Assembly (NCBI GenBank): GCA_000004695.1
Contig: CM000153.2
Location: 3,520,001-3,584,000 of the forward strand
Reading direction: 5' to 3'
From: Dictyostelium discoideum
Lineage: Eukaryota
DNA length: 64,000 nucleotides
A program made the position numbers and the translations under genes. The notes beneath the pieces are model-generated. The model did not search any database. It saw only the letters and a list, made by a program, of their open reading frames with translations, and was not told the origin of the DNA. Positions 7,447 to 53,032 of this stretch are shown one piece after another (position 1 is the first letter of the stretch; each line of letters begins with the position of its first letter).

Positions 7447-7785
7447 AAAAATAATTAATTAAATTTTTTAAATTTTTTTTTAAACATATTTAAAATAAGT
7501 ATCTACCAAAAATATTATTATTTTAATAATTATTATTTCTTTAATCAAATAAAAATTTATTTACCCAATAATTGAAATTAAAAAAATAAAAAAAATAATT
7601 ATTAACAATACAGAAGTTATTGTTTAAAACATACTTATAAGTGTAACAGATCAGAAAGTTTGCCAGTATTAAAAAATAAAAAAAAATAATATTTATTTAA
7701 ATATTATTTTTATGTATTTATATAAATACTTAACAATAAAAATAATAATTAAAAAAAAAAAAAAAATTTTGATTGAATAAATAAT

Positions 7786-31718: not shown

Positions 31719-32992
31719 TTTACTAATATTTAAATATTGAAATTTTATAGATATTTGATTAAAACATCATTTGAAACTAGAGAAAAAGCAGCAGAATTTT
31801 TTAAACAGGCAAAAAAATTTGTAAAAAAACATATAGAAGAAACTGATGAAAAAAAAAAATTACAAAGAGAAAAAGATAAAGAAAATGAAAATGAAAATGA
31901 AAATGAAAATGAAAATGAAAATGAAAATGAAAATGAAAAAGAAAATGAAAATGAAAATGAAATTGAAAATGGAAATGAGAAAATAATAGGGGAAAGAAAA
32001 AAAAGATATAAAAATTTATTAAATCCATCTGAACTCAAACCTTCAGTTCATGCATTATTAAAATCACTTGATCCAATTTATAAGGTTACTCCAGAGGATT
32101 TAAAATCTTTACCAATTTCAAATATTGATACTAGTAATGCTGTTATAATTGAAAAAGCATCAGAAATTGAAAATGGTGTTAAACTTTTATTAAATGGTAA
32201 ATCTGTCGATCAAATAACTTTGGATGATGGTATTGTTTTAGGTTTTGATCTTGAATGGTCAGCTTTAGAAAGATATACAACTAAAACTAAAAAAGAAACA
32301 AAAACTGCCCTCATTACATTAACAAATGGATGGTATGTATAATAATTAAAATTTTATATTATAATAAATAAACAATACTAATATTTTTAAAAATAATAAT
32401 GATAATAAAAAATAATAGTGAAACTGTTTTATTTAGAGTGTGTCATACAGGTTTAGATGAAAATAGTGAATTAGGAAAATTATTAAAGAGTGGAGTTATT
32501 ACAAAGACAGGTTTTGGTGCTGGTAAAGATGCAAATAAAATTTGTAAAGATTTTGGTTTTGAAGTATGTATTTTTATTATTTATTGGAGAAAAAAAAAAA
32601 AAAAAAGATTATAATATATTAATGTATTATTATTTCCTCAAATGAAAATTTATAATTTTATTGAAATTGAAATTGGAATTTTTTTTTTTTTTTTTTATAA
32701 TTAGGTAGATGGAATTTTTGATTTAAAATATACACCAAAGATTCTTGCATTATTCAAAAATAGAGCTGTTGAATATGTTACAGCTGGTTTATTTGGAGTA
32801 AATATTAAAAGAAATTCAACTTTAATTTTATCAGCTTGGGGAACTTCACACCAATTAAAACCAAGACAAATTCATTCATCTGCATTATATACTATTTACA
32901 GTCTAAAAACTTATTTCATGTTACCATCTTTAAAAGTTGATACAACTTTTATCGAAAAAGATACATTCATTCCATTTGCAAAACTTTATTAA
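31340..32992 (+). CDS. 3'-5' exonuclease (DEDD/WRN-exo-like) domain protein with an (EN)n repeat. Four exons at approximately 31340..31584, 31751..32332, 32419..32563 and 32704..32992.
   Basis: GTAAGA, GTATGT and GTATGT donors pair with TATAG, AATAG and AATTAG acceptors in consistent phases. Exonuclease motifs LGFDLEWS...ALITLTNGWCETVLFRVCHTG...LKSGVITKTGFGAGKDANKIC..FDLKY...SAWGTSHQL. The Exo III Y-x3-D motif appears degenerate (ALYTIYSL). The N-terminus MNSLFKRINTIQ.. looks like a presequence. Exon 3/4 coordinates are ±2 nt because the printed sequence and the ORF track disagree locally. Confidence 0.6.
31857..31985 (+). repeat. (GAAAAT)n hexanucleotide repeat, about 20 units, encoding (EN)n inside the exonuclease-domain gene
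   Basis: gaaaatgaaaatgaaaat... seen directly. It is in frame within exon 2 and produces spurious antisense ORFs 31745..32038 and 31801..32028. Confidence 0.9.
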
Positions 32993-33332
32993 AAAAAATA
33001 AAATAAAATAAAATTAAAAAATAAAAAATAAAAAATAAAAATAAATACAAATAAAAAGAGAAATAATTATAATTATTTTTTTTTTTTGAAAGTGTGTTGT
33101 ATTAAAAAAAAAAAAAAAAAAAAAAAGTAGTAGTGGGGTATTATTCATTTCAATTACTTTTTATTAAAAAATCAAACAATGAATAAGAAATTCAATTTTA
33201 TTTTTATTTTTATTTATTTTTATTTTTTTATTTTTATACACATTTATTTTTATTATTAAAAATCTAACGTATTAATTTATATATTTAAAAAAAAAAAAAA
33301 ACATATTTAATAATAAGATATTAAAAAAAATA

Positions 33333-34032
33333 ATGAAATTTATTATAATTTTAATTTTTATATATTTTATTAATAATATTAATGGATCTGTAATTAGGTT
33401 ATTAACATTTAATAATGATCAATGTGGTGGTGAACCATATAATATTATAACTAAAAATATATGTTCTTCTAAAGGTTGTTTTAAAATATCACCAGATAAA
33501 AAAATAATTTATGGTATGAGTTTAACATCAAATGAAAGAATAGTTTCAGGAAATAATATTGGAGAATGTATTAAATTTGATAATTCATCATCGCTAATTG
33601 AATATCAAGAAACCAATAATTTATATTCATTTGAAGGTTATTGTAATGAAATTATCACAGATTCATCAACAACTACAAATAATAATAATAATGAAAATAT
33701 TGAAGATTACAGTTGATTCATTAAAAGGTGAATATTGTGGATTTAATTCATCATCAAGCCAAGATTCAAATTATTTCTATTTTAAGAAATCATGTAATTT
33801 AGAAAATGGTATTATTACTCTATCAAATTGTAAATCATGTTTATCTGGTGACAAAAATTGTAAAATTATTCAAACAATTCAAACAAAAACTCAAACAACT
33901 TGCACATCAATTATATCATCTAAAAAATATACTTATCATAATATTTTTGATAATAATTCAAATATTTTAAATAATAATTTTAATTTTTTAACATTTTTAT
34001 TATTGTTAGTAATAATTTCTTTAATTATTTAA
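33333..34032 (+). pseudogene. Cys-rich secreted, GPI-anchor-like small protein gene that is split by an apparent frameshift near 33700 (ORF 33333..33716 in frame 0, ORF 33598..34032 in frame 1). It is either a pseudogene or the sequence carries an indel error.
   Basis: Signal peptide MKFIIILIFIYFINNINGS and a Cys pattern (QCGGEPY..NICSSKGC..GECIKF..GYCNEI) in frame 0. The continuation KGEYCGFNSS..SCNLENG..CKSCLSGDKNCKIIQT..TCTSI plus a hydrophobic C-terminal tail (LTFLLLLVIISLII) lies in frame 1. No intron of legal size can bridge the two. A related paralogue lies at 56296..57069. Confidence 0.4.
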
Positions 34033-34123
34033 TACTTTTAAAATAAAAAATAAAAATAATTCTAAAAACATTTAATTTTTTTTTTTTTTATTATTATTTA
34101 TTTATTTTTTTTTTTTTAATTTA

Positions 34124-34262
34124 CAACTCTAATTATACTAACAACGGGTTGATTAAGTACTTTTCTAATTGGACCACTTGCTGAAAAGAAAGAGAAAAAC
34201 ATTGAACAAATGAAAACTATTATAATTAATTGCCATGGTAAAGTCATTGGAATTGGTAACAA
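34124..34262 (-). pseudogene. Duplicated fragment of the last about 46 codons of permease paralogue A (LPIPMTLPWQLIIIVFICSMFFSFFSASGPIRKVLNQPVVSIIRVVN*), detached from any upstream exon
   Basis: About 95% identical to 34545-34685, the genuine 3' end ..SAFGPIRKVLNQPVVSIMRVVT*. It lies in copy A of the segmental duplication. Confidence 0.6.
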
Positions 34263-34333
34263 ATTAAAATTTTTCTTTTTATGGGATTTTTGGGTTTAAT
34301 AAAAAATTAAATTAATAAAAAAAAAATTAAAAC

Positions 34334-34425
34334 TAAAACTCAAACGATTTGTGCATCAACTATATCATCTAAAAATATACTTATCATAATATTTTTGATA
34401 ATAATTCAAATAATTTAAATAATAA
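34334..34425 (+). pseudogene. Degenerate, frameshifted duplicate of the 3' coding end of the Cys-rich gene (KTQT.C.S.ISSK...)
   Basis: Matches 33886-33990 with substitutions and a 1-nt deletion in an A-run (aaaaatatac versus aaaaaatatac). It lies in copy B of the segmental duplication. Confidence 0.5.
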
Positions 34426-34544
34426 TTTTAATTATTTAACATTTTAACAAATAAAAATTTTAAATTTTAAAAATAATTATTCTAATATTTTAATTTAAAT
34501 TATTATTATTATTATTTTTTTATTTATTTATTTATTTTATTTTT

Positions 34545-36771
34545 TTAAGTTACAACTCTCATTATACTAACAACGGGTTGATTAAGTACTTTTCTAATTG
34601 GTCCAAAAGCTGAAAAGAAAGAGAAAAACATTGAACAAATGAAAACTATTATAATTAATTGCCAAGGTAAAGTCATTGGAATTGGTAACATTGTAAATAA
34701 TTGTCTTTGAAGGATCATTGTGAAACCAACAGTTGAACCAATAAACATACCCAACATTGAGGAAGCCATAACCAATACGAAAGCTTCATAGACGTAAATT
34801 CTAATCATCCAAGATTTTGGTATTCCCAATGCACATAAAACACCAATTTCTTTAGTTTGTTCTAAAATATTTGAATATACAGAAGACATTAAAGAGAAGA
34901 AAGAGATGGTCATTGCTAAAACTGTAGTAAAACTGAAAAAGTATTGAATGATCACAGAGGCCGTTGCAAAAGGTTTAATCTTTTCATAGTAATCCAACAT
35001 ATCGAAATCCTCTCTAAGATTACCAATTAAAAAGCTATTTAAACGATTCTTTATTGATTCTACAGCATCTTTATCATCAGTATTCAATTTCAAAATCACT
35101 TGATTCATTGGAATTTCACGTACTGATGAGAAGATACTACTTGCATACGAGAGATAAGTTGGAAATGATACGATTGAATCTTGATTTGTAACTGATGGGA
35201 ATTTAGAGAATTTAAAAGATGGTGCGCTATCTAACATTGCCGATGGTTTAACTAAGTGTCTAGTGGAATTAACTGATGAAGCTTCACCAGATTTAATATT
35301 TAATTGTAATAGGAATGATTGATCAATTGAAGCACCAATAACATCGGTATACAATGAACCAATGATTATCTTTTGACCACTAGTAAATGAATAGATTTGC
35401 TCGGAAAGATATTGAATATCATTCAAACTATAATCAGGATCAGGAGCGATTGAGCTTGCCTTTAAGAATCCAGGTAAAGTAGTAGCGAATAAGTTTGGAG
35501 AAATCGCATACATATTGGTGCCATCACTATAGATATGACCAATGTTTGTAATTTGAGATTGTTGATATTGTTTAGTCATAATTGAGAAAGATGAAGACTC
35601 CCAAGCGTAATCTTCAATCTCTGGTTGATATTGTGAGAGGAATTGATCGATTAACAAAGTTGACTCTGGTTGAAAGAATGGTTCACTACTTTTCACACTT
35701 AGATAACTACCATAGCTTTGTTGAACTTGATAATTCATTGATGCCTGTTGCATAGAGTATGAAACATTGACAAAGATAATGAATGCCAATGAAACTGCAT
35801 ACATGATAGCGGTCTTTCTATTTCTAAGTTTATGAGCTATTAAATTCTTTATAACCAATGATTTGATAGCACGTTTCTCCCAAAAGAAGAATAGATTAAC
35901 TACAGCCCTCTCTAGAATCTGTTCAACATTTAATGCTAAACTAACCAACCCCAATAACATTGCAATCAACAACATGAAGAACATATTTAAAAGTAGTGTC
36001 AAATTGAATGAAAGCAACGACAATGGGAACACATAATAAATTCCAAAGCCAAACACAGACAACAATGAGCCAATCAATGCAACCGATGATGAGAAACTGT
36101 TATCTTCACTACGTTCAATTGAGATTTGTACAGCGGCAGTCTTTGAATGTTTCACATCTAAAGAGTCATGTAAATTCTTACCCAATGCATTACGAATTGG
36201 AAAGATTGCCGACGCTATTGGAATTATAATACCCAATGCCGATGCTAACAATATGGCTTCACCTGTTAATTTTGGTGGAATTGGTACGCCAGTAATTGAT
36301 TTGAAAATAGCAGAAACAATGAATCCAAATACTTGAGCAATTAATAAACCTAAACCCCAAGATGGTACACTATAGGAGAATGCTTTGAATAGCATCAATT
36401 GAATAATACCATTTCTTGTTGTACCAATCATTCTCATTACACCCATTTCAAAGGTTCTAGTCTCTACATCAATCATCAACAATGAATAAATCAATAGAAT
36501 CGATAAAAACAATAGAATGAATATGATTACATTCAAAATCAAACCTAAAAATAATGCTACATATCTATTCTTTGAAAGTTCACTCATCACTGGTAATTCT
36601 GATGAAAGTTCATTAAATCCAACTTTATATAAAATTTTATTTGAAAAATCTACAATCTTTTCTAAAATTACATCTTGATTTGAATTAATATATGGTGTTA
36701 ATCTTGATGGTGGTAAATTTATAATAACTTGTTTTGAATAATCATAAAAATTAATTTTTGAAATATAACTT

Positions 36772-36810
<39 letters not shown>

Positions 36811-37996
36811 AAAAATTAATATATATATATATAATTTTTCCCCGATTTTTTTTTAAAAAAAAAAAAAAACAATATTAAATAAACTTACTTTTTTGAATTA
36901 TAATTCATTTCTGGATCAAATTGTGTAATTAAAAATGGTAAAAATGTTGAATATTCAATGATTATGGAAGAACTTTGATCGGATGGGAACTTACCTTCAG
37001 AAGAAGAGAAAGTATCAGCAACAGTTGCTGTTGCATAAATTACGGGTATGGTTGAAGAGGTGATATTGGCATGAGTCCAAATTGATGATAGAAATGATCT
37101 AGTTGGAATACGAATGAATATTGTATCACCCTTTGAAATTGATAATTTATTTGCTAAATTCTCTTGAACGTAAACTGTACCCTGTGGTGGAGCATCCAAT
37201 TTCCAATCACGACCTAATCCCATCCTCTTTTCACGTGCAGTATCAATCACAAACATCGATGCTTTACTTGCTACTGAATTACTACAAACTGATTCGAAAC
37301 AGTATGGTTCACATTGATTTGGCTCATCATGATATTTCCAAAGATTATCATTTGGATTTGTGTTACCGTTTGGACACGACTTTGCACTAACCACACTAAC
37401 AGTCCCATCGACTCTTGGTGAATGGTAACTATCATCTACTTCTTCTAATTCATATTGATTATTATTATTATTATCATCAAAATAACTTCCATTTGGTTCT
37501 TTATATGTACCAGCTAATAACTCTGATAACATTGTATAATTTAATTGATCTGATAATGTCCATGAACCAGGTGTCAACACCATATCCATTTCACCAACAC
37601 TTGCTTCTGACAAACTTAGGAATACCACTGGTGTGTTGGTGATGATGGAAACACATAGTGACACTATAAACACTACCAAGAAGCATGCGGAAAATCCTAA
37701 CAAATAGGATAACTTATTACGTAGATTGATTCTTAATGTATGTGAAAAGAAATGTTTCCAATGGTAGAGTAATGTTCTAAACCAATTCACTATCTTCACT
37801 TTTACTGTATCACCATTTATTGCATTTGATATACCCTTGAATTTACCATAAGGTTTACTTGATATTTTCTTCTTAATTTTACCATTGTCATCATAATTAT
37901 CTTTATTTTTTAAAAATGTTTGTTCTTCTGAATTTTCTATAAATTCATCAAAACTATCGCTACTACTACTACTACCATTACTTTTATTTATTTTTA

Positions 37997-38036
<40 letters not shown>

Positions 38037-38120
38037 ATCTCTTGATTTTATAAAATCATCATCTTCTTCATCATCATTATTATTTATAGATTGATATTTA
38101 TTATTCCTTTTATTTGTCAT
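34545..38120 (-). CDS. Double MacB/FtsX-type permease-domain membrane protein, paralogue A, about 1151 aa. This is the divergent copy. Exons complement(36889..38120) and complement(34545..36768).
   Basis: A GTAAGT donor (36888) and a poly-A+G acceptor (36769) join in phase 2: ..EMNYNSK|N|YISKINFYDYSKQVII... The N-terminal module is ..KLSYLLGFSACFLVVFIVSL (TM1), a large ectodomain, then LYIAVTIN...; the FtsX core is LNMFFMLLIAMLL..MGVMRMIGTTRNGII. The C-terminal module is IKNLIAHKLRNRKTAIMYAVSLAFIIF (TM5), a second ectodomain, then the FtsX core EIGVLCALGIPKSW. Confidence 0.75.
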
Positions 38121-39920: not shown

Positions 39921-42900
39921 TTAATCTTTTAAAACTGTTATGATTGATTGTTTTAATAAATGTCTAATTGGAGAAATTACAGAAATGATTGAGACAATTA
40001 AAGATGAAATAAAGAGTATAGGAATTAATTCCCATTGAATTGAAAATGGTATAATTTGTTGATCCATCATTGATTGTTTTAATAGAATAATATAGCTAAT
40101 GAAAAGACCAATAATAATACCAATTATACAACTACCAAATGAAAGTGTAAAAGCTTCGATAATATAGATTTTATAGATTTTAAAATTTGATAAACCAATT
40201 GATCTTAGAATACCAATTTCTTTTGATTGATTTTTAATACTTGTAAACATTGATGAAATTAATGAAAATGATGATATTATTATAGAGATTACTGTTGCGA
40301 AATCAAACAATAATGAATTTAATTTATCTGAACTGTTTGATGAATCTTTATATCTAATTATATATGGACTTTCAGAGTTTTTATTAAATAAACAATTTTT
40401 TGAAATTTTATATTGTAAAGAATCGATTTTATCGTCATCTAATGATTTTGGTTTAATTAAAATTAAATTAACTGGTATATTCCTAACTGAATCAATATTA
40501 CCACCTGATAATCCGACATATGCTGGAAAAGAAGTAATTACACTTTGAGTAAGATCTTCATCCGGAATTTCAGATACACTAAATGTACCTGCAGTTTTTA
40601 AATATGCTAATGGTTTCACTATATTTCTACCCATCCAGTTGAATGTTACATTATGTTTTTGACTTCGACCTGATGAATAATCTATTCTTCTATAGTTATT
40701 AATTTCAATATAATTTGATAATATAAATTCATCTGGTCCACCTTTTTCATCAAGATACATTAATTTCTTTTGAGATTGAGTTAATATTAATTTATTCATT
40801 GAATCTTTGCTATATAAAATCGTTGATAAATCAGTCATATCACCATTTTGATTAAAATCAACATCTTTATCAGTTTTTAAATTTTTTGAAACTGATGAAA
40901 CTTGAAAATAATCTTCCATTATTTCACTGAAATAAGTTGGGCCAACTGCATGTAATGATGATTTTAATGTTACACTTCTAGCAAAATCAGAAACATATGA
41001 TTTCTTATCATCGGGTTGAGAAAATTCACTAAATTTCATTGATCTTAATGAATAACTATCTAATTCATCATTATTTTCATCATCTAATATACGATCTAAA
41101 CATAGAGTTATATTTGATAAATCTTCTCTGGTGATAAAGGAACCAGTTTCAATCTTTAAAAGTGAACCAAACGATTGTTTCTCATTAGCATTTGCAGTTT
41201 CAACTTGAATTAAATATAAACAATTAATTATAATTATTAAAGATACTGAAACACCAAACATAAACATTGTACTTTTATTCTTTTTCTTGTGAGAAATTAA
41301 ATTTTTATATAAAATTATTCTGATTATATTTTTTGCAAAAGGATCTATTAAAGTAATAATGTAAACTAATGTTTTTGAAATGATTAAATGGAAATTCATC
41401 ATTAAGAAAATTGCTGATATTAAAACTAAAATTAACAATCCAAATAATAATGCTAATAATGAACTAAAATTACCAGATAATAATAATTTTGGTAATAAAA
41501 TACAACCAACTATACCTAAAGCGCTTAATGACAAACCAATCCATGATAAATACTTTCTATATTCTGAATCAGTTGAATCTTTATCAATTGTTGTAATTTG
41601 ATGTGATGATGATATATTTGATCTACTAGTATCCAATTGCTCACCTAATGAAAAACTTAATGCTTTTCTAATTGGTAATATCAATGATACCATTGGTATT
41701 AGAAAACCAAGTAAAATTGAATAAACAATTGAATCTACTGTTAAATAATTTGAAATTTCATCTGAATTTGTAAAACGTTTTAATTGATCTATAATTATAA
41801 ATAAAAAGATTTGAGAAATTATTAAACCTAATATAATTGATGGGACTGTGAATATTATTGTTTTTGAAACTATTAGCTCGATGATGAAACTAAATTTAGC
41901 ACCTAACATTCTAAATACACCGTTATTAAATGTCATTGAATCCACATCAATCATTAATGTTGTATAAATTAAAAGAATTGATAATAAAAGGAATACAAAA
42001 ACTATTAAATTTAATAATTGACCTAAATTACTTGAAACTTCGTTACTCTTGTATAATTCAGTCATTATTGGTGTTGAAATATCAACTCTACCAACACCAA
42101 TTTTGTAAACTAATTTCGAGGCAACTTTATTTACTCTTTGTAAAGTTTTATCTAAATCTGTACCATAATACATTGGCAATCTGGGGGATGGAAATTTCAT
42201 AACTATATTTTCAACATATTCTTTTATATTTTTATTTTTCATTAAATCTACATTCCATGTTGGATTTACTTGTTCAACCATTGAATCATAGAATGAGTCA
42301 ATATCTATTAAAACTGATGGTATTATCTCACCCAATTCGAAACCTAGTTCAAATGGATTCTCTGTATTATTGAAAAATCCATTAACTTTTAATTTTGTTA
42401 TTATATATGGTGATTTTTCAATTTGAGTTGTTGAAATCATTGAATCTGTTAATAATGTTGATAATAATCTAACTGCTGGTACTATTATAAAAATTTCATC
42501 ACCAACATTTGCATGGATTGATTGAGCAAGTGATTCTATAATTAAACATGTTCCTTTTGGTTGTGATCCATAACCAAATGTTGATTTTATACCCATATCA
42601 TTCTCTTTTTTAAAATCTAGTAATTGGAAACCCATAAATACATGATTTCCTTCACCACTACATCTATTAATAAAACAAGTGCTCTCTGTGCAATTTAAAC
42701 CACTCCCATTTGAAAAGTATCTTGATTCAATATTATCTTGTACAACTTTTTCACAATAACTTACTGGATATCCATATGTATCTATAAAATTAAATCTTGG
42801 TGAATTATTTTTAAAAAAACTATTTTTATTACTAATACCACTACCACTATATAATCCATGGGTATTCTTTTCATCAGCTCCAACTCTATTATCATCTTTT

Positions 42901-43643
42901 ATTTCTCTAGTTGTATCATTTAAAATTTGATCAAATAATGTATAATTTAATCTTATAGTAAAACCTTTTTCTAAATCTATTGAAAGTTGTTGTTTTCCTG
43001 ATATTATTAAATCTATATGATTAGCATCAGAATCTGCTTTACTTAAAAATATTAATGATATATTTGATAATACTGATAAACCAGTTGCAACTAAAATTAC
43101 TACTAAAAAACATGATATAAAACCAATACTATAATTCAATTTACTCCTTTTAATACCATTTATTGAATATTTAATTATTGAAAACCATTCTCCAATAGTT
43201 GTATTAAATCCAATATTTGTTAAATTTATTTGAATCTTTTTTAAAATAAATCCAAAATATTTTAAAAATTCTAAACTTCCAAAAATTAATATTATAAAAA
43301 ATTCCAAAAAAACAAAAATTCCTTCAATTATTATTTTAAGTTTATTGAAAAAATAATTCTCTTTTTTAATATTATTATTATTATTATTATTTATATTATC
43401 ATCATAATAATAAATATTGTCACCTTGACAATCATTTTCAAGTGATCCTTTTAAAATTGATAATTCAATTGGGTCACATTCACCAACACTCTCTCTCCAT
43501 TTATTATAAAATTTTTTATTAATTAAAATTGGATCATTCTCATTCCTATTATTTATAGAACTCTTTAAAATTGAACTATTTTCATTGATGATACTATAAT
43601 CACCATCATCATTATCATTCCCACTTGATTCATAATTATACAT
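39921..43643 (-). CDS. Double MacB/FtsX-type permease-domain membrane protein, paralogue B. Single exon, 1240 aa.
   Basis: Uninterrupted ORF. Two tandem modules, each with an N-terminal Arg/Lys-rich amphipathic stretch plus TM (INGIKRSKLNYSIGFISCFLVVILVATG; RIILYKNLISHKKKNKSTMFMFGVSVSLIII), a large MacB-periplasmic-like ectodomain (GDEIFIIVPA..), and a 3-TM FtsX core with the signature loop (NNGVFRMLGAKFSF; EIGILRSIGLSNFKIYKIYIIEAFTLS). About 90% nucleotide identity to paralogues C and D. Confidence 0.8.
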   Translation of the reverse strand: MYNYESSGNDNDDGDYSIINENSSILKSSINNRNENDPILINKKFYNKWRESVGECDPIELSILKGSLENDCQGDNIYYYDDNINNNNNNNIKKENYFFNKLKIIIEGIFVFLEFFIILIFGSLEFLKYFGFILKKIQINLTNIGFNTTIGEWFSIIKYSINGIKRSKLNYSIGFISCFLVVILVATGLSVLSNISLIFLSKADSDANHIDLIISGKQQLSIDLEKGFTIRLNYTLFDQILNDTTREIKDDNRVGADEKNTHGLYSGSGISNKNSFFKNNSPRFNFIDTYGYPVSYCEKVVQDNIESRYFSNGSGLNCTESTCFINRCSGEGNHVFMGFQLLDFKKENDMGIKSTFGYGSQPKGTCLIIESLAQSIHANVGDEIFIIVPAVRLLSTLLTDSMISTTQIEKSPYIITKLKVNGFFNNTENPFELGFELGEIIPSVLIDIDSFYDSMVEQVNPTWNVDLMKNKNIKEYVENIVMKFPSPRLPMYYGTDLDKTLQRVNKVASKLVYKIGVGRVDISTPIMTELYKSNEVSSNLGQLLNLIVFVFLLLSILLIYTTLMIDVDSMTFNNGVFRMLGAKFSFIIELIVSKTIIFTVPSIILGLIISQIFLFIIIDQLKRFTNSDEISNYLTVDSIVYSILLGFLIPMVSLILPIRKALSFSLGEQLDTSRSNISSSHQITTIDKDSTDSEYRKYLSWIGLSLSALGIVGCILLPKLLLSGNFSSLLALLFGLLILVLISAIFLMMNFHLIISKTLVYIITLIDPFAKNIIRIILYKNLISHKKKNKSTMFMFGVSVSLIIIINCLYLIQVETANANEKQSFGSLLKIETGSFITREDLSNITLCLDRILDDENNDELDSYSLRSMKFSEFSQPDDKKSYVSDFARSVTLKSSLHAVGPTYFSEIMEDYFQVSSVSKNLKTDKDVDFNQNGDMTDLSTILYSKDSMNKLILTQSQKKLMYLDEKGGPDEFILSNYIEINNYRRIDYSSGRSQKHNVTFNWMGRNIVKPLAYLKTAGTFSVSEIPDEDLTQSVITSFPAYVGLSGGNIDSVRNIPVNLILIKPKSLDDDKIDSLQYKISKNCLFNKNSESPYIIRYKDSSNSSDKLNSLLFDFATVISIIISSFSLISSMFTSIKNQSKEIGILRSIGLSNFKIYKIYIIEAFTLSFGSCIIGIIIGLFISYIILLKQSMMDQQIIPFSIQWELIPILFISSLIVSIISVISPIRHLLKQSIITVLKD

Positions 43644-44750: not shown

Positions 44751-47700
44751 TTAATCTTTTAAAACTGTAATAATTGGTTGTTTTAATAAATGTCTAATTG
44801 GAGAAAATACAGAAATGATTGAGACAATTAAAGATGAAATGAAGAGTATAGGAATTAATTCCCATTGAATTGAAAATGGTATAATTTGTTGATTCATAAC
44901 TGATTGTTCCAATAGAATTGTATAGCTAATGAAAAGACCAATAATAATACCAATTATACAACTACCAAATGAAAGTGTAAAAGCTTCGATAATATAGATT
45001 TTATAGATTTTAAAATTTGATAAACCAATTGATCTTAGAATACCAATTTCTTTTGATTGATTTTTAATACTTGTAAACATTGATGAAATTAATGAAAATG
45101 ATGATATAATCATTGAGAGTACAGTTGCAAAATCAAAGAATAATGAATTTAATTTATCTGAACTATTTGATGAATCTTTATATCTAATTATATATGGACT
45201 TTCAGAGTTTTTATTAAATAAACAAGTTTCTGAAATTTTATATTGTAATGAATCAATTAAATCGTCATCTAATGATTTTGGTTTTAATAAAATTACGCTA
45301 ACTGGTATATTCCTAACTGAATCAATATTACCACCTGATAATCCGACATATGCTGGAAAAGAAGTAATTACACTTTGAGTAAGATCTTCATCCGGAATTT
45401 CAGATACACTAAATGTACCTGCAGTTTTTAAATATGCTAATGGTTTCATTACATTTCGACCAATCCAATTGAAGGTTACATTTTGTTGTTGATTTTTACC
45501 AGATGGATCAATTTTTGTATAATTATTAATTTCAATATAATTTGATAAAAGAAATTCATCTGGACCACCTTTTTCATCAAGATACATTAATTTCTTTTGA
45601 GATTGAGTTAATATTAATTTATTCATTGAATCTTTACTATATAAAATCGTTGATAAATCAGTCATATCACCATTTTGATTAAAATCAACATCTTTATCAG
45701 TTTTTAAATTTTTTGAAACTGATGAAACTTGAAAATAATCTTCCATTAATTCACTGAAATAAGTTGGACCAACTGCCCATAGTGATGATTTTAAAGTTTT
45801 AGTTTTAGCAAGATCAGAAACAATTGATTTCTTATCAGGTTGAGAAAATTCACTAAATTCCATTGACCTTAATGAATAACTATCCAAACCATTATTTTCA
45901 TCATCGATTATTCGATCTAAACATTGAGTTATATTTGATAAATCTTCCCTTTTTATAAAGGTACTGGTTTCAATCTTTAAAAGTGAACCAAAGTATTGTT
46001 TATTTGAAGCATTTGAAATTTCAACTTGAACTAAAAATAAACAATTAATTATAATTATTAAAGATACTGAAACACCAAACATAAACATTGTACTTTTATT
46101 CTTTTTCTTGTGAGAAATTAAATTTTTATATAAAATTATTCTAATAATATTTTTTGCAAAAGGATCTATTAAAGTAATAAGGTAAACTAATGTTTTTGAA
46201 ATGATTAAATGGAAATTCATCATTAAGAAAATTGCTGATATTAAAACTAAAATTAACAATCCAAATAATAATGCTAATAATGAACTAAAATTACCAGATA
46301 ATAATAATTTTGGTAATAAAAAACAACCAACTATACCTAAGGCGCTTAATGATAAACCAATCAATGATACAAACTTTCTATATTCTGAATCAGTTGAATC
46401 TTTATCAATTGTTGTAATTTGATGTGATGATGATATATTTGATCTACTAGTATCCAATTGCTCACCTAATGAAAAACTTAATGCTTTTCTAATTGGTAAT
46501 ATCAATGATACCATTGGTATTAGAAAACCAAGTAAAATTGAATAAACAATTGAATCTACTGTTAAATAATTTGAAATTTCATCTGAATTTGTAAAACGTT
46601 TTAATTGATCTATAATTATAAATAAAAAGATTTGAGAAATTATTAAACCTAATATAATTGATGGGACTGTGAATATTATTGTTTTTGAAACTATTAGCTC
46701 GATGATGAAACTAAATTTAGCACCTAACATTCTAAATACACCGTTATTAAATGTCATTGAATCCACATCAATCATTAATGTTGTATAAATTAAAAGAATT
46801 GATAATAAAAGGAATACAAAAACTATTAAATTTAATAATTGACCTAAATTACTTGAAACTTCGTTACTCTTGTATAATTCAGTCATTACTGGTGTTGAAA
46901 TATCAACTCTACCAACACCAATTTTGTAAATTAATTTTGAAGTAAATTCACTAACTCTTTGTAAAGTTTTATCTAAATCTGTACCATAATACATTGATAA
47001 TCTTGGTGATGGAAATTTCATAACTATATATTCGACATATTCTTTAATATTTCTATTTTTCATTAAATCTACATTCCATGATGGATTTACTTGTTCAACC
47101 ATTGAATCATAGAATGAGTCAATATCTATTAATATCGATGGTATTGTTTCACCCAATTCGAAACCTAGTTCATATGGATTCTCTGTATTATTGAAAAATC
47201 CATTAACTTTTAATTTTGTTATTATATATGGTGATTTTTCAATTTGAGTTGTTGAAATCATTGAATCTGTTAATAATGTTGATAATAATTCCACTGCTGG
47301 TACTATTATAAAAATTTCATCACCAATCTTTAATTCTGTTGCTTTAGCCAATAATTCTACCATTAAACATGTACCCTTTGGTTGTGATCCATAACCAAAT
47401 GTTGATTTTATACCCATATCATTCTCTTTTTTAAAATCTAGTAATTGGAAACCCATATATACATGTTCTCCATCACCACCGCATCTATTAATAAAACAAG
47501 TACTCTCTGTGCAATTTAAATCACTACCATTTGAAAAGTACCTTGCTTCAATATTATTTTCAACAATGTTTTCACAATAATTTACGGGATATCCATATGT
47601 ATCTATCATATGAAATCTTGGTGAATTATTTTTAAAATTTTTTTTTTTACTTCCACCACTACTTGAACTCTGGATTATAGTTTCACTAGCTCCAGCACTA

Positions 47701-48383
47701 TTTTCACCTTTTATTTCTATATTCTCTATTTTTTCAAAATTTAAAATTGCATTATTTAAAATTTTATCAAATAATGTATAATTTAATCTTATAGTAAAAC
47801 CTTTATCTAAATCTATTGACTGATGTTGTTTTCCTGATATTATTAAATCTATATGATTAGCATCAGAATCTGCTTTACTTAAAAATATTAATGATATATT
47901 TGATAATACTGATAAACCAGTTGCAACTAAAATTACTACTAAAAAACATGATATAAAACCAATACTATAATTTAATTTACTCCTTTTAATACCATTTATT
48001 GAATATTTAATTATTGAAAACCATTCTTCAATAATTGTATTAAATCCAATATTTTTTAAATTTATTTTAATTTTTTTTAAAATTAATCCAAAAAATTTAA
48101 ATTCTTTTTTTAAAAATTCCAAAGCTCCAATAATTATTGAGGTTAATAATTTAAAAAAATATAAAATTCCTTTGATTATTATTTTAAATTTATTATTTTT
48201 TTTAAAATGATAATCGTTACTGTCACAATCTTCATCAAATGATGTTAAAATTGCATAATTTTTAGTGATGGAATTATCGTCATCATCTCCATCCTCATCT
48301 TCATTACAGTTGTCATTTTCACTTGGTCCATAAAAATTATGCATTTCTATTCTTTTTTTTATTTTAAAATTATTGGTTAGCAT
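44751..48383 (-). CDS. Double MacB/FtsX-type permease-domain membrane protein, paralogue C. Single exon, 1210 aa; the start may alternatively be the second Met, MHNFYG.
   Basis: Same architecture as paralogue B, with long stretches identical at the nucleotide level. One sign of this is that the spurious antisense ORFs 41380..41601, 46201..46422 and 50727..50948 encode nearly the same peptide. Differences cluster in the acidic N-terminus and in a patch of ectodomain 1 (..GENSAGASETIIQSSSSGG.. versus ..DDNRVGADEKNTHGLYSGSGISN..). Confidence 0.8.
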   Translation of the reverse strand: MLTNNFKIKKRIEMHNFYGPSENDNCNEDEDGDDDDNSITKNYAILTSFDEDCDSNDYHFKKNNKFKIIIKGILYFFKLLTSIIIGALEFLKKEFKFFGLILKKIKINLKNIGFNTIIEEWFSIIKYSINGIKRSKLNYSIGFISCFLVVILVATGLSVLSNISLIFLSKADSDANHIDLIISGKQHQSIDLDKGFTIRLNYTLFDKILNNAILNFEKIENIEIKGENSAGASETIIQSSSSGGSKKKNFKNNSPRFHMIDTYGYPVNYCENIVENNIEARYFSNGSDLNCTESTCFINRCGGDGEHVYMGFQLLDFKKENDMGIKSTFGYGSQPKGTCLMVELLAKATELKIGDEIFIIVPAVELLSTLLTDSMISTTQIEKSPYIITKLKVNGFFNNTENPYELGFELGETIPSILIDIDSFYDSMVEQVNPSWNVDLMKNRNIKEYVEYIVMKFPSPRLSMYYGTDLDKTLQRVSEFTSKLIYKIGVGRVDISTPVMTELYKSNEVSSNLGQLLNLIVFVFLLLSILLIYTTLMIDVDSMTFNNGVFRMLGAKFSFIIELIVSKTIIFTVPSIILGLIISQIFLFIIIDQLKRFTNSDEISNYLTVDSIVYSILLGFLIPMVSLILPIRKALSFSLGEQLDTSRSNISSSHQITTIDKDSTDSEYRKFVSLIGLSLSALGIVGCFLLPKLLLSGNFSSLLALLFGLLILVLISAIFLMMNFHLIISKTLVYLITLIDPFAKNIIRIILYKNLISHKKKNKSTMFMFGVSVSLIIIINCLFLVQVEISNASNKQYFGSLLKIETSTFIKREDLSNITQCLDRIIDDENNGLDSYSLRSMEFSEFSQPDKKSIVSDLAKTKTLKSSLWAVGPTYFSELMEDYFQVSSVSKNLKTDKDVDFNQNGDMTDLSTILYSKDSMNKLILTQSQKKLMYLDEKGGPDEFLLSNYIEINNYTKIDPSGKNQQQNVTFNWIGRNVMKPLAYLKTAGTFSVSEIPDEDLTQSVITSFPAYVGLSGGNIDSVRNIPVSVILLKPKSLDDDLIDSLQYKISETCLFNKNSESPYIIRYKDSSNSSDKLNSLFFDFATVLSMIISSFSLISSMFTSIKNQSKEIGILRSIGLSNFKIYKIYIIEAFTLSFGSCIIGIIIGLFISYTILLEQSVMNQQIIPFSIQWELIPILFISSLIVSIISVFSPIRHLLKQPIITVLKD

Positions 48384-49276: not shown

Positions 49277-52200
49277 TTAATCTTTTAAAACTGTAATAAT
49301 TGGTTTCTTTAATAAATGTCTAATTGGGGAAACTACAGAAATGATTGAGACAATTAAAGATGAAATGAAGAGTATAGGAATTAATTCCCATTGAATTGAA
49401 AATGGTATAATTTGTTGATTCATAACTGATTGTTCTAATAGAATTGTATAGCTAATGAAAAGACCAATAATAATACCAATTATACAACTACCAAATGAAA
49501 GTGTAAAAGCTTCAAAAATATAGATTTTATAGATTTTAAAATTTGATAGACCAATTGATCTTAGAATACCAATTTCTTTTGATTGATTTTTAATATTTGT
49601 AAACATTGATGAAATTAATGAAAATGATGATATAATCATTGAGAGTACTGTTGCAAAATCAAAGAATAATGAATTTAATTTATCTGAACTGTTTGATGAA
49701 TCTTTATATCTAATTATATAAGGACCTGTTGATTTTAGATTAGATAAACATTTTTGACTAATTTTTAATCTTAATGAATCAATTAAATCATAATCTAATG
49801 ATTTTGGTTTAATTAAAATTACACTAACTGGTATATTCCTAACCGAGTCGATATTACCACCTGATAACCCAACATATGCTGGAAATGAGGCTATTACACT
49901 TTGAGTTGCACCTTTATCTGGAATCTCAGATACACTAAATGTACCTGCAGTTTTTAAATATGCTAATGGTTTCATTAAATAACGACCCATCCAATTTAAT
50001 GTTACATTTTGTTGTTGATTTTTGCCAGATGGATCAATTTTTGTATAATTATTAATTTCAATATAATTTGATAATAAATATTCATCACTACCACCTTCTT
50101 GATCAAGATACAATAATTTCTTTTGAGATTGAGTTAATATTAATTTATTCATTGAATCTTTACTATATAAAATCGTTGATAAATCAGTCATATCACCATT
50201 TTGATTAAAATCAACATCTTTATCAGTTTTTAAATTTTCTGAAACTGATGAAACTTGAAAATAATCTTCCATTAATTCACTGAAATAAGTTGGACCAACT
50301 GCAAATAATGATGATTTTAAAATTCTAGTTCTACCAAGATCAGAAACCGTTGATTTCTTATTATCAGGTTGAGAAAACTCACTAAACTCCATTGATCTTA
50401 ATGAATAACTATCTAAACCATTATTATCATCCATTAAACCATCTAAACATTGGGTAATATGTGATAAATCTTCTCTAAGTAAAAATGTTTCTGTTTCAAT
50501 CTTTAAAAGTGAACCATAGTATTGTTTTCTAGAAGCATTTGCAGTTTCAACTTGAACTAAATATAAACAACTAATTGTAATAATTAAAGATACAGAAATA
50601 CCAAACATAAACATTGTACCTTTATTCTTTTTCTTGTGAGAAATTAAATTTTTATATAAAATTCTTCTAATAATATATTTTGCACCAGGATCGATTAAAG
50701 TAATAAGGTAAACTAATGTTTTTGAAATGATTAAATGGAAATTCATCATTAAGAAAATTGCTGATATTAAAACTAAAATTAACAATCCAAATAATAATGC
50801 TAATAATGAACTGACATCACCGGATAATAATAATTTTGGTAATAAAAAACATACCACTATACCAAAAGCACTAATTGATAAACCAATCAATGATACAGAC
50901 TTTTTAAATTCTGCATCTTTTGAACCTTTATCAATTGTTGTAATTTGATGTGATGATATTTTTGATCTACTAGTATCCAATTGTTGATTTAATGAAAAAC
51001 TTAATGCTTTTCTAATTGGTAATATCAATGATACCATTGGTATTAGAAAACCAAACAAAATTGAAAATAGAATTGAATTTACTGTTAAATACTTTGAAAT
51101 ATCTGCTGAATTTGATATACTCTTTAATTGATCTACGACTATAACTAAAAAGATTTGTGAAATTATTAAACCTAATATAATTGATGGTATTGTGAAAATT
51201 ATTGTTTTTGAAACTATTAGCTCGATGATGAAACTAAATTTAGCACCTAACATTCTAAATACACCGTTATTAAATGTCATTGAATCCACATCAATCATTA
51301 ATGTTGTATAAATTAAAAGAATTGATAATAAAAGGAATACAAAAACTATAATATTTAATAATTGACCTAAATTATTTGAAACATCTTTGCTCTTGTATAA
51401 TTCAGTCATTACTGGTGTTGAAATATCAACTCTACCAACACCAATTTTGTAAATTAATTTTGAGCAATAATCACCCACACGTTGTAAAGTTTTATCTAAA
51501 TCTGTACCATAATACATTGATAATCTTGGTGATGGAAATTTCATAACTATATATTCGACATATTCTTTTAAATTTCTATTTTTCATTAAATCTACATTCC
51601 ATGTTGGATTTACTTGTTCAACCATTGAATCATAGAATGAGTCAATATCAATTAATATAGATGGTATTGTTTCACCCAATTCAAAACCTAATTCATAACC
51701 TAATTCGTATGGATTCTCTGTATTATTGAAAAATCCATTAACTTTTAATTTTGTTATTATATATGGTGATTTTTCAATTTGAGTTGTTGAAATCATTGAA
51801 TCTGTTAATAAAGTTGATAATAATTTAACTGCTGGTACTTTTAAAAAAATTTCATCACCAATCTTTAATTCTATTCTTTTAGCCAATGATTCTATCATTA
51901 AACATGTACCCTTTGGTTGTGATCCATAACCAAATGTTGATTTTATACCCATATCATTCTCTTTTTTAAAATCTAGTAATTGGAAACCCATATATACATG
52001 TTCTCCATCACCACCACATCTATTAATAAAACAAGTACTCTCTGTGCAATTTAAATCACTACCATTTGAAAAGTACCTTGCTTCAATATTATTTTCAACA
52101 ATGTTTTCACAATAATTTACGGGATATCCAAATGCATCTATCATATGAAATCTTGGTGAATTATAATCAAAATTATTAAAACCACTACTATCACCACCAA

Positions 52201-52685
52201 TAAATAAACTATTGAAACTATTAGCTTCATTCAATTCTATTAATTTTTCAAAATTTAAAGTTGCATCATTTAAAAGTTGATCAATTAATGTATAATTTAA
52301 TCTGACATCAATAATTTCACCTAAATCTATTGATTGTTGTTTGCCTGATATTATTAAATCAATACCATAGGCATCAGAATCTGCTTTACTTAAAAATATT
52401 AATGATATATTTGATAATACTGATAAACCAGTTGCAACTAAAATTACTACTAAAAAACATGATATAAAACCAATACTATAATTCAATTTACTCCTTTTAA
52501 TACCATTTATTGAATATTTAATTATTGAAAACCATTCTTCAGTAATTTTAAAAAATCCAATATTTCTTAAAATTAATTTAATCTTTTTTAAAATTATTTT
52601 AATCCTTTTTAAAATTGATTTAAAAAATTCTAAAATTATTATTATTATTTTTATTATTATTATTTTAAATTTTTTTATATATAAA

Positions 52686-52716
<31 letters not shown>

Positions 52717-53032
52717 CATCTTCATCATTATTATTATTATTATTATCATTTGATGATTTTTTAAAATCTGATAATTCAACTTGACTATATTCACCAACAC
52801 TATCTCTCCAATTATTATAATATTTTTTGTCACTAATTAAAATTGTATCATTTTCATTATTTTCACTCCTTTTCATTGCACTTGTTAATATTGAATTATT
52901 ATTGTTGAGGTTGTTTTTATCCTCATCGTCATCATCGTCGTTATTATTATTGTTATTGTTTTCTTCATAATTATTTACACTATCTTCATTATCGTTAGCA
53001 CTTATTCCAAAATAATTATCATTTTGAACCAT
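49277..53032 (-). CDS. Double MacB/FtsX-type permease-domain membrane protein, paralogue D. Single exon, 1251 aa.
   Basis: Uninterrupted ORF with the same two-module FtsX architecture. The N-terminal extension is extremely D/N-rich (NNNNNNNDDDDDEDKNN...). The FtsX loops are NNGVFRMLGAKFSF and EIGILRSIGLSNFKIYKIYIFEAFTLS. Confidence 0.8.

Follow-up and report, generated by a model that had tools for sequence, protein, structure and literature searches.

A small tandem duplication at the convergent 3' ends of two genes in Dictyostelium discoideum AX4, and the gene-tail relics it very likely left

The 3' ends of two convergent genes on chromosome 4 of Dictyostelium discoideum AX4, the Cys-rich gene DDB_G0285659 on the plus strand and a permease gene of the FtsX-like (DUF214) family on the minus strand, contain a block of DNA that is present twice in the 64,000-nt stretch analyzed here (the window). 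We consider it very likely that this arrangement is the result of a lineage-specific tandem duplication at the DNA level, covering approximately 409 bp and joined through 40 nt of filler, and that it left behind two gene-tail relics that have drifted since. The duplication is genuine and was gained in the AX4 lineage, not produced by the assembly, and it is an ordinary structural variant that is probably neutral.

In the course of events that we propose, the unit 33853-34261 would have been copied as 34302-34690, with the repair junction gaining the 40-nt filler. Both breakpoints would fall inside the last exons of the two genes, and since these genes converge, the duplication leaves both bodies with full tails and breaks neither gene; each body would have stayed joined to one complete tail of its own and to the proximal 3' flank. 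One detached tail from each gene would have been left between the genes, and the distance from stop to stop would have been widened to 512 nt. The detached tails, without a 5' exon, a promoter of their own or a splice acceptor, would have been non-functional from the outset and drifting ever since.

The duplicated unit and its junction

A repeat finder applied to the window returned direct, collinear head-to-tail blocks at offsets of 449, 448 and 429, and in MAFFT alignments the homology runs from about 33885/34334 and ends exactly at 34261/34690. The Smith-Waterman score between the two copies was 253, compared with 26.4±3.9 (maximum 39) for 200 shuffles. It is clear from these results that the two intervals are direct, collinear, adjacent (with 40 nt between them) and similar far above chance, as is characteristic of a tandem segmental duplication. 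The initial annotation of this DNA, which described a block present twice about 449 bp apart as a tandem segmental duplication at a convergent 3' end with two detached gene-tail fragments, is thereby confirmed, also by the self-alignment of the two intervals that it had proposed as a check.

Copy A (33853-34261, 409 nt) is continuous on its left side with the body of the Cys-rich gene, and contains the attached tail of that gene, the intergenic spacer and an orphan permease tail. Copy B (34302-34690, 389 nt) is continuous on its right side with the body of the permease gene, here called permease A, and consists of a decayed A-rich fringe (34302-34333), an orphan tail of the Cys-rich gene, the intergenic spacer and the attached permease tail. 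The identity is 96% between 33923-33999 and 34371-34447 and 93% between 34106-34268 and 34535-34697, and it drops to about 60-74% in the AT-rich intergenic middle, where indels account for about 20 nt. Counted from 33885, the unit holds 49 codons of the Cys-rich gene including the stop, and 48 permease codons plus the stop. The duplicated part of either gene amounts to only the last 48-59 codons, and there is a single body per gene.

The right edge of copy A is exact at 34261 in the alignments, and the left edge lies within 33853-33885. The unit had initially been taken to start at 33885, but the start is probably 33853, as suggested by a comparison of the fringe 33853-33884 with 34302-34333, where 22 of the 32 positions match (shuffle p=0.004). 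The junction filler (34262-34301, 40 nt, beginning AATTAAAATTTTTCTTTTTATGGGATTTTTGGGTTTAAT) is not homologous to the ancestral sequence: compared with the position-equivalent ancestral sequence to the left of the unit it matches at 16 of 40 positions (p=0.23), and it is missing from all single-copy relatives. No second copy of the filler was found in the window, allowing up to 3-4 mismatches, or in the related loci L001-L007, where only low-complexity A-rich matches appeared, and a transposon or other repeat was rejected as its source on these grounds. The 8-nt sequence ATTGTAAA occurs near both ancestral breakpoints (33857-33864 and 34690-34697), but the junction carries the 40-nt filler, for which no source was found, and the left edge is decayed. 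We infer that the duplication may have arisen by end-joining or template switching.

The attached and detached gene tails

Permease A (34545-38120, minus strand) has two exons, 38120-36889 and 36768-34545, separated by an intron (36888-36769), and encodes a protein of 1151 aa that matches Pfam PF02687 at E=1.7e-25 and 89.8 bits. The gene model was obtained from tblastn and splice-site reading (homologues P0001-P0010), and a permease product of 1151 aa is called at locus L005 as well. Its attached tail in copy B (34545-34690, minus strand), which ends in MLPIPMTLPWQLIIIVFICSMFFSFFSAFGPIRKVLNQPVVSIMRVVT and the stop, carries a single unique derived substitution, a synonymous one, and at the protein level it is the same as the tails of P0001 and P0121.

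The orphan permease tail in copy A (34116-34261, minus strand) has 48 codons plus a stop, and the minus-strand reading, ending in SASGPIRKVLNQPVVSIIRVVN and the stop, agrees with the earlier description of it as a detached fragment. The portion between its ATG (34247) and its stop (34116) coincides with the annotated AX4 gene DDB_G0285661 (Q54MU1, 43 aa), and the sequence of the corresponding protein P0122 is identical to the orphan ORF; the match of P0122 to the AX4 annotation, like that of P0127 below, rests on the protein cluster listing. Of the FtsX domain, the orphan covers just the final transmembrane segment. The ORF aligns to positions 81-119 of the 120 positions in the Pfam FtsX profile with 17.2 bits against a cut-off of 25.5, and DDB_G0285661 was rejected as a complete member of the FtsX domain family (PF02687), the match being partial and below the gathering threshold. 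A neighbouring paralog was also rejected as the source of the tail, as the identity is about 36% to the three neighbouring paralogs (permeases B, C and D) versus 93% to permease A. The orphan tail has 4-5 unique derived substitutions, including M to I, T to N and F to S, the last at a site where all paralogs have a hydrophobic residue. This last change gives FFSASGPIR in place of the permease sequence FFSAFGPIR, and at the nucleotide level the copies are distinguished by, among others, CTT versus AAA at 34177-34179/34606-34608 and T versus G at 34120/34549. Its codon changes, three non-synonymous and one synonymous, are compatible with neutrality, these being small counts. On the 5' side of the tail are the filler and a stop codon at 34298-34296, and the breakpoint has no AG acceptor. 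DDB_G0285661 is most likely an annotation artefact, in which an open 43-codon permease remnant was taken up by gene prediction. The literature search returned no paper on DDB_G0285661, DDB_G0285659 or new Dictyostelium assemblies.

The Cys-rich gene DDB_G0285659 (33333-34032, plus strand) spans 700 nt, a length not divisible by 3, and in AX4 it carries a 14-nt frameshifting deletion with its junction at about 33707-33710. The unspliced frame meets a stop at 33716 after 127 aa. The AX4 annotation spans the deletion by a 70-nt "intron" (33643-33712), and the AX4 protein P0127 (209 aa) corresponds to 33333-33642 joined to 33713-34032. In five compared relatives the gene is a single-exon ORF of 233-241 aa, and the D. 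firmibasis and D. dimigraforme genes translate directly to proteins of 245 and 230 aa, respectively. A second annotation of identical DNA puts the intron elsewhere. Judged from these gene structures, the annotated intron appears to be a device that hides the 14-nt frameshift. A Pfam search with the Cys-rich protein gave only a non-significant match to CfaA_B_C (E=0.36).

The attached tail of the Cys-rich gene in copy A (33885-34032, plus strand), ending in KTQTTCTSIISSKKYTYHNIFDNNSNILNNNFNFLTFLLLLVIISLII and the stop, shows only one unique derived substitution relative to five outgroups. It had been called intact, and it is indeed attached and open, but it is in frame only by way of the annotated 70-nt intron, following the 14-nt deletion upstream. 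The orphan tail in copy B (34334-34447, plus strand), of which about 38 codons are recognizable, had been reported as frameshifted and was found to be so: one nucleotide is deleted from a run of A, where 33922 lacks a counterpart between 34370 and 34371, and the last dozen or so codons together with the stop have been lost or replaced.

Origin, age and alternative explanations

The site is single-copy in seven related genomes, two labelled D. discoideum, two labelled D. cf. discoideum, and those of D. citrinum, D. firmibasis and D. dimigraforme, and the duplication is therefore a derived gain in the AX4 lineage. The window and L005 each contain two occurrences of the diagnostic motif for the permease tail and two of that for the Cys-gene tail, against one of each in L001, L002, L003, L006, L007, L008 and L009. 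Both window copies map to one stretch of the related locus L001 (7415-7826), and the stop-to-stop gap is 512 nt in the window compared with about 88-170 nt in the relatives. The suggestion that the permease locus is structurally unstable finds little support at this junction, as it is single-copy in the seven other genomes; the visible instability is a separate tandem array of 4.5-4.8 kb with three paralogs further along the window. Among the genomes compared, one other carries the duplication, and it differs very little from AX4.

When substitutions were polarized with five outgroups, 8-9 unique changes, in addition to indels, fell in the orphan halves and 2 in the attached halves, an asymmetry with a one-sided binomial p of 0.03-0.05 that comes from small counts (11 events). 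The anatomy of the orphans and this substitution pattern suggest that they are non-functional. At 0 of 258 sites did we find a substitution common to both copies yet absent from all outgroups, and because there are no such shared unique substitutions the event is poorly placed on the AX4 branch; very roughly, its age would correspond to 0.2-0.9 of the AX4-specific branch.

Copies A and B disagree at five sites where each of the two states is also found in related genomes. Three of these sites (33899, 33903 and 34236) place copy A with L001/L003, and there the state of copy B is shared by at least two of L002, L007 and D. citrinum. Together with the lack of substitutions restricted to both copies, this would be the pattern left by a duplication older than the AX4 split that was lost from the closest relatives by repeat recombination, or by unequal exchange between diverged haplotypes, and the five sites could mean that the source haplotypes had already diverged or that the event is older. 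We nevertheless regard such a history as unlikely, since 7 of 7 other lineages, including successive outgroups, are single-copy, and repeated precise loss would be unparsimonious. Moreover, the differences at these sites are of the C/T or A/T type and fall on synonymous or variable positions. In a genome with a GC content of about 22%, parallel changes of this kind are common, and the five sites fit homoplasy at A/T- and C/T-variable positions. The probability that the two copies are an error of the reference assembly, with a repeat collapsed or expanded, is practically negligible. Such an error could appeal merely to the general difficulty of AT-rich assembly, whereas the coding tails differ by about 4-7% in addition to indels, so that the copies cannot be a misassembled single locus. 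Furthermore, a second, independent chromosome assembly from an AX4-like strain (GCA_054883475.1, with a chromosome of 5,576,411 bp versus 5,450,249 bp) is structurally identical, with 0 differences in the 1501 nt corresponding to 33300-34800.

The initial annotation also stated that each copy holds one open and one decayed half, which is correct in that the attached tails are open and the orphans are detached or frameshifted, and it interpreted this as reciprocal retention and subfunction partitioning. Selection after the duplication would then have kept one intact half in each copy, as in duplication-degeneration-complementation (DDC), and the attached halves are indeed less changed than the orphans. 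This interpretation was not borne out, and we find it very improbable. The DDC model presupposes two whole copies of a gene whose separable subfunctions are lost complementarily, but only 3' fragments were copied here, with one body and one promoter per gene. Since at no time did two full copies of either gene exist, no subfunctions were available for partitioning, and the later changes amount to unpatterned decay and not to complementary loss by later mutation. Which half is usable was set by adjacency at the time of duplication: in the order body1-X-X-body2, copy A keeps the working tail of gene 1 and copy B that of gene 2 by geometry, and since tail detachment is automatic, selection is not needed for the pattern of one good half per copy. 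Ordinary purifying selection on those parts that remain connected to a gene accounts for the asymmetry in substitutions. A function acquired by the orphan permease tail is likewise improbable. DDB_G0285661 would then be a real new gene, encoding a 43-aa single-helix membrane micropeptide, or an antisense regulator that is carried in read-through transcripts of the Cys-rich gene and could pair with the 93% identical 3' end of the permease mRNA. Its frame is still open over 48 codons with an in-frame ATG, it is annotated as an AX4 protein, and its position is immediately downstream of the Cys-rich gene, with opposite orientation. However, an open frame of 48 codons is expected by chance after about 5 mutations, there is no upstream exon or AG acceptor but instead the filler and the stop codon at its 5' side, non-synonymous changes outnumber the synonymous one and include F to S at the conserved hydrophobic position, the gene is missing in all seven relatives, and no paper naming it was found in the literature searched. 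There is only a slim chance that the orphan 34116-34261 is expressed, as a peptide that might associate with FtsX-like permeases or as an antisense RNA acting through Dictyostelium RNAi, or, as a related idea, that the 450-bp insert is kept as a spacer between convergent 3' ends that would otherwise be about 100 nt apart.

Significance and comparison with known systems

The main value of the tandem duplication with its two drifting relics lies in annotation and in serving as a worked example, and it touches no open biological question. DDB_G0285661 (UniProt Q54MU1) becomes explicable as a duplicated exon fragment and not a gene. The case illustrates the general rule that tandem duplications with breakpoints in two convergent genes spare both genes, and being harmless to both, such a duplication is easily tolerated. 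The D. discoideum genome has a very low mutation rate, and the diverged copies provide a rough internal clock for the structural variant.

The likeness to DDC is superficial and restricted to the one good half per copy; the difference is that only 3' fragments were copied and that geometry set the pattern. Processed pseudogenes and retrocopies resemble the present case in that a detached 3' gene fragment is found near its parent. Here, however, the unit comprises the tails of two genes on opposite strands together with the intergenic DNA, and lies in tandem beside its source. A retrocopy origin was rejected on this basis and because there is no correctly placed poly(A) of the kind predicted for a retrocopy, the A-rich tract at 34302-34333 being at the wrong end for the poly(A) of either transcript. 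Like other spurious short ORF annotations in D. discoideum AX4, DDB_G0285661 is a hypothetical protein of 43 aa with the permease C-terminus as its only homologue, but it differs from them in that a duplicated exon fragment can be identified as its exact origin. The closest agreement is with small tandem segmental duplications with junctional filler, which share the head-to-tail copies, the short insert, the single-copy sisters and the decaying fragments without 5' parts. Nothing essential sets the present duplication apart from these; its particular feature is that both breakpoints lie in the last exons of convergent genes, which gives two tail fragments on opposite strands.

Anatomy of the duplicated segment

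The initial annotation proposed a tandem duplication where the plus-strand Cys-rich gene DDB_G0285659 and the convergent minus-strand permease A meet, and this was confirmed by a repeat search giving collinear direct blocks with offsets of 449, 448 and 429, and by a local self-alignment score of 253 against 26.4±3.9 in shuffled sequences. Homology is unbroken in pairwise alignment from about 33885/34334 to exactly 34261/34690, with 96% identity over 33923-33999, 93% over 34106-34268, and about 20 nt of indels in the AT-rich intergenic middle. At the left fringe a further 22 of 32 positions match (p=0.004), all changes in copy B being to A or T, and the left edge of the unit is probably 33853. 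Unit A thus delimited (33853-34261) is separated from unit B (34302-34690) by a 40-nt filler (34262-34301), in which homology is absent (16 of 40 matches, p=0.23) and for which no source was found elsewhere in the window or in seven of the related loci.

The window has a G+C content of about 22% and contains poly-Asn tracts and intron-containing genes. Exact matches of two AX4 proteins, DDB_G0285661 and DDB_G0285659, identify it as chromosome 4 of D. discoideum AX4. Within permease A, the minus-strand ORF of 681 codons at 34545-36590 matches the FtsX-like permease family (Pfam PF02687, E=1.7e-25), and its best homologues come from Dictyostelium: a D. discoideum protein at 99% identity and a D. 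purpureum one at 80%. The 90% cluster of the best match (P0001) includes the 43-aa AX4 protein DDB_G0285661 (Q54MU1). It also holds a 52-aa Aquimarina latercula protein (P0123) with no visible permease similarity, which is a database clustering oddity with no biological link. Upstream of the Cys-rich gene, an ORF at 31737-32342 contains a long GAAAAT/GAGAAT-type hexamer repeat (31846-31986) encoding (EN)n; it belongs to a gene whose orthologues match DNA_pol_A_exo1 in related loci.

Polarity and age of the event

The orthologous locus was compared in nine other assemblies. The two stop codons lie 512 nt apart in the window versus about 88-170 nt in seven relatives, namely GCA_054859385.1 and GCA_054859355.1 (both labelled D. 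discoideum), GCA_054859235.1 and GCA_054859205.1 (D. cf. discoideum), D. citrinum, D. firmibasis and D. dimigraforme. Tail-diagnostic motifs of 31 and 35 nt are single in each of these seven; the window and GCA_054883475.1 have two of each. One 412-nt stretch of GCA_054859385.1 aligns with both window copies, and multi-way alignments gave a single ancestral arrangement. An assembly artefact is ruled out by GCA_054883475.1: its chromosome, assembled separately and of another length, matches the window base for base over 33300-34800, but it is not an independent population sample. The duplication was therefore gained in the AX4-type lineage.

At four-fold degenerate sites of the permease exon (34545-36590) AX4 differs by about 14% from GCA_054859385.1 and GCA_054859355.1, which differ from each other by 2.6%. 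These two assemblies, labelled D. discoideum and free of the duplication, are therefore distant relatives of AX4, and seem to represent a cryptic species of their own and not strains of the same species. With five outgroups as reference, 8-9 substitutions across 258 aligned sites are unique to the orphan halves (about 3.3%), against 2 in the attached halves (one-sided binomial p = 0.03-0.05). If orphan sequence changes at about the rate of four-fold sites, these small counts would place the event, very roughly, at 0.2-0.9 of the AX4-specific branch, and would have it long predate laboratory domestication. No substitution is common to the two copies alone, and at five sites the copies differ with both states found among relatives. 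We attribute the five sites to homoplasy at C/T and A/T positions; an exchange between diverged haplotypes, or an older event, is an improbable origin.

Attached and detached tails

Copy A carries the Cys-rich gene's own tail, ending at stop 34032, and on the opposite strand a permease tail (48 codons and the stop) that is detached from its gene. In copy B the permease has its own tail, with the stop at 34545, and the Cys tail is the detached one: about 38 of its codons are recognisable, 1 nt is deleted after 34370, and the final dozen or so codons are gone.

The orphan permease tail derives from permease A, to which it is 93% identical, versus about 36% to three paralogs (39921-43643, 44751-48383, 49277-53032). 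The protein DDB_G0285661, MTLPWQLIIIVFICSMFFSFFSASGPIRKVLNQPVVSIIRVVN, is identical to the minus-strand ORF from 34247 to 34116. The tail differs from permease A by three replacements (M->I, T->N and F->S) and a single synonymous substitution, the F->S site being F, I or V across all four paralogs, and these changes look unconstrained. It has an upstream stop codon at 34298-96, lacks an acceptor at the breakpoint, and matches only the last 39 FtsX profile positions, with a score below threshold. From these features we conclude that DDB_G0285661 is most plausibly a relic caught by gene prediction; that it is expressed, whether as micropeptide or antisense segment, is highly improbable.

The Cys tail of copy A had been called intact. 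It is indeed the gene's own tail, but its translation in AX4 is doubtful. In five relatives that were aligned or inspected the gene is a single-exon ORF of 233-241 aa; compared with these, the 700-nt AX4 gene lacks 14 nt (junction about 33707-33710), and this deletion, with TTA at its flanks, removes YCKSV and shifts the frame. The 209-aa AX4 protein (P0127) corresponds exactly to 33333-33642 joined to 33713-34032, so that a 70-nt intron (33643-33712) restores the frame by removing sequence that is coding in relatives; the intron conceals the frameshift. GCA_054883475.1 is annotated with another intron on identical DNA (P0129). Given the frameshift and the conflicting models, the tail may be untranslated altogether, and in AX4 DDB_G0285659 is probably either a pseudogene or cut short at 127 aa. 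The syntenic position in D. purpureum has no Cys-rich gene, the 3'-5' exonuclease gene directly following the permease (7483-7637 of that locus), so the gene seems confined to the D. discoideum / citrinum / firmibasis group.

Geometry of the duplication and its standing

A tandem duplication X→XX with breakpoints in two convergent genes yields the order body1-X-X-body2. Of necessity the first copy continues gene 1 and the second continues gene 2, each gene retaining its own proximal 3' flank, and the other two tail fragments are detached from birth. AATAAA motifs are present downstream of each stop, in that gene's own copy. What had been read as reciprocal retention and subfunction partitioning is a consequence of this geometry and not an evolutionary outcome, as at no time were there two complete copies of either gene; the fewer substitutions in the attached halves are ordinary purifying selection.

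The proposed instability of the permease locus has weak support at this junction: seven genomes have a single copy there. Elsewhere, the three FtsX-like paralogs form a separate tandem array (period 4.5-4.8 kb) with blocks 91-100% identical, including 300 nt at 41607-41906 that exactly equal 46428-46727, suggesting very recent duplication or gene conversion.

Within the literature collection that was searched, no paper mentioned DDB_G0285661 or DDB_G0285659. The AX4 duplication is a new example of a phenomenon that is itself ordinary; it is useful for the curation of two AX4 gene models and of low general interest. It differs from subfunctionalised duplicates and from retrocopies in the very features that define them, and belongs to the well-known class of small tandem segmental duplications that yield gene-fragment pseudogenes.
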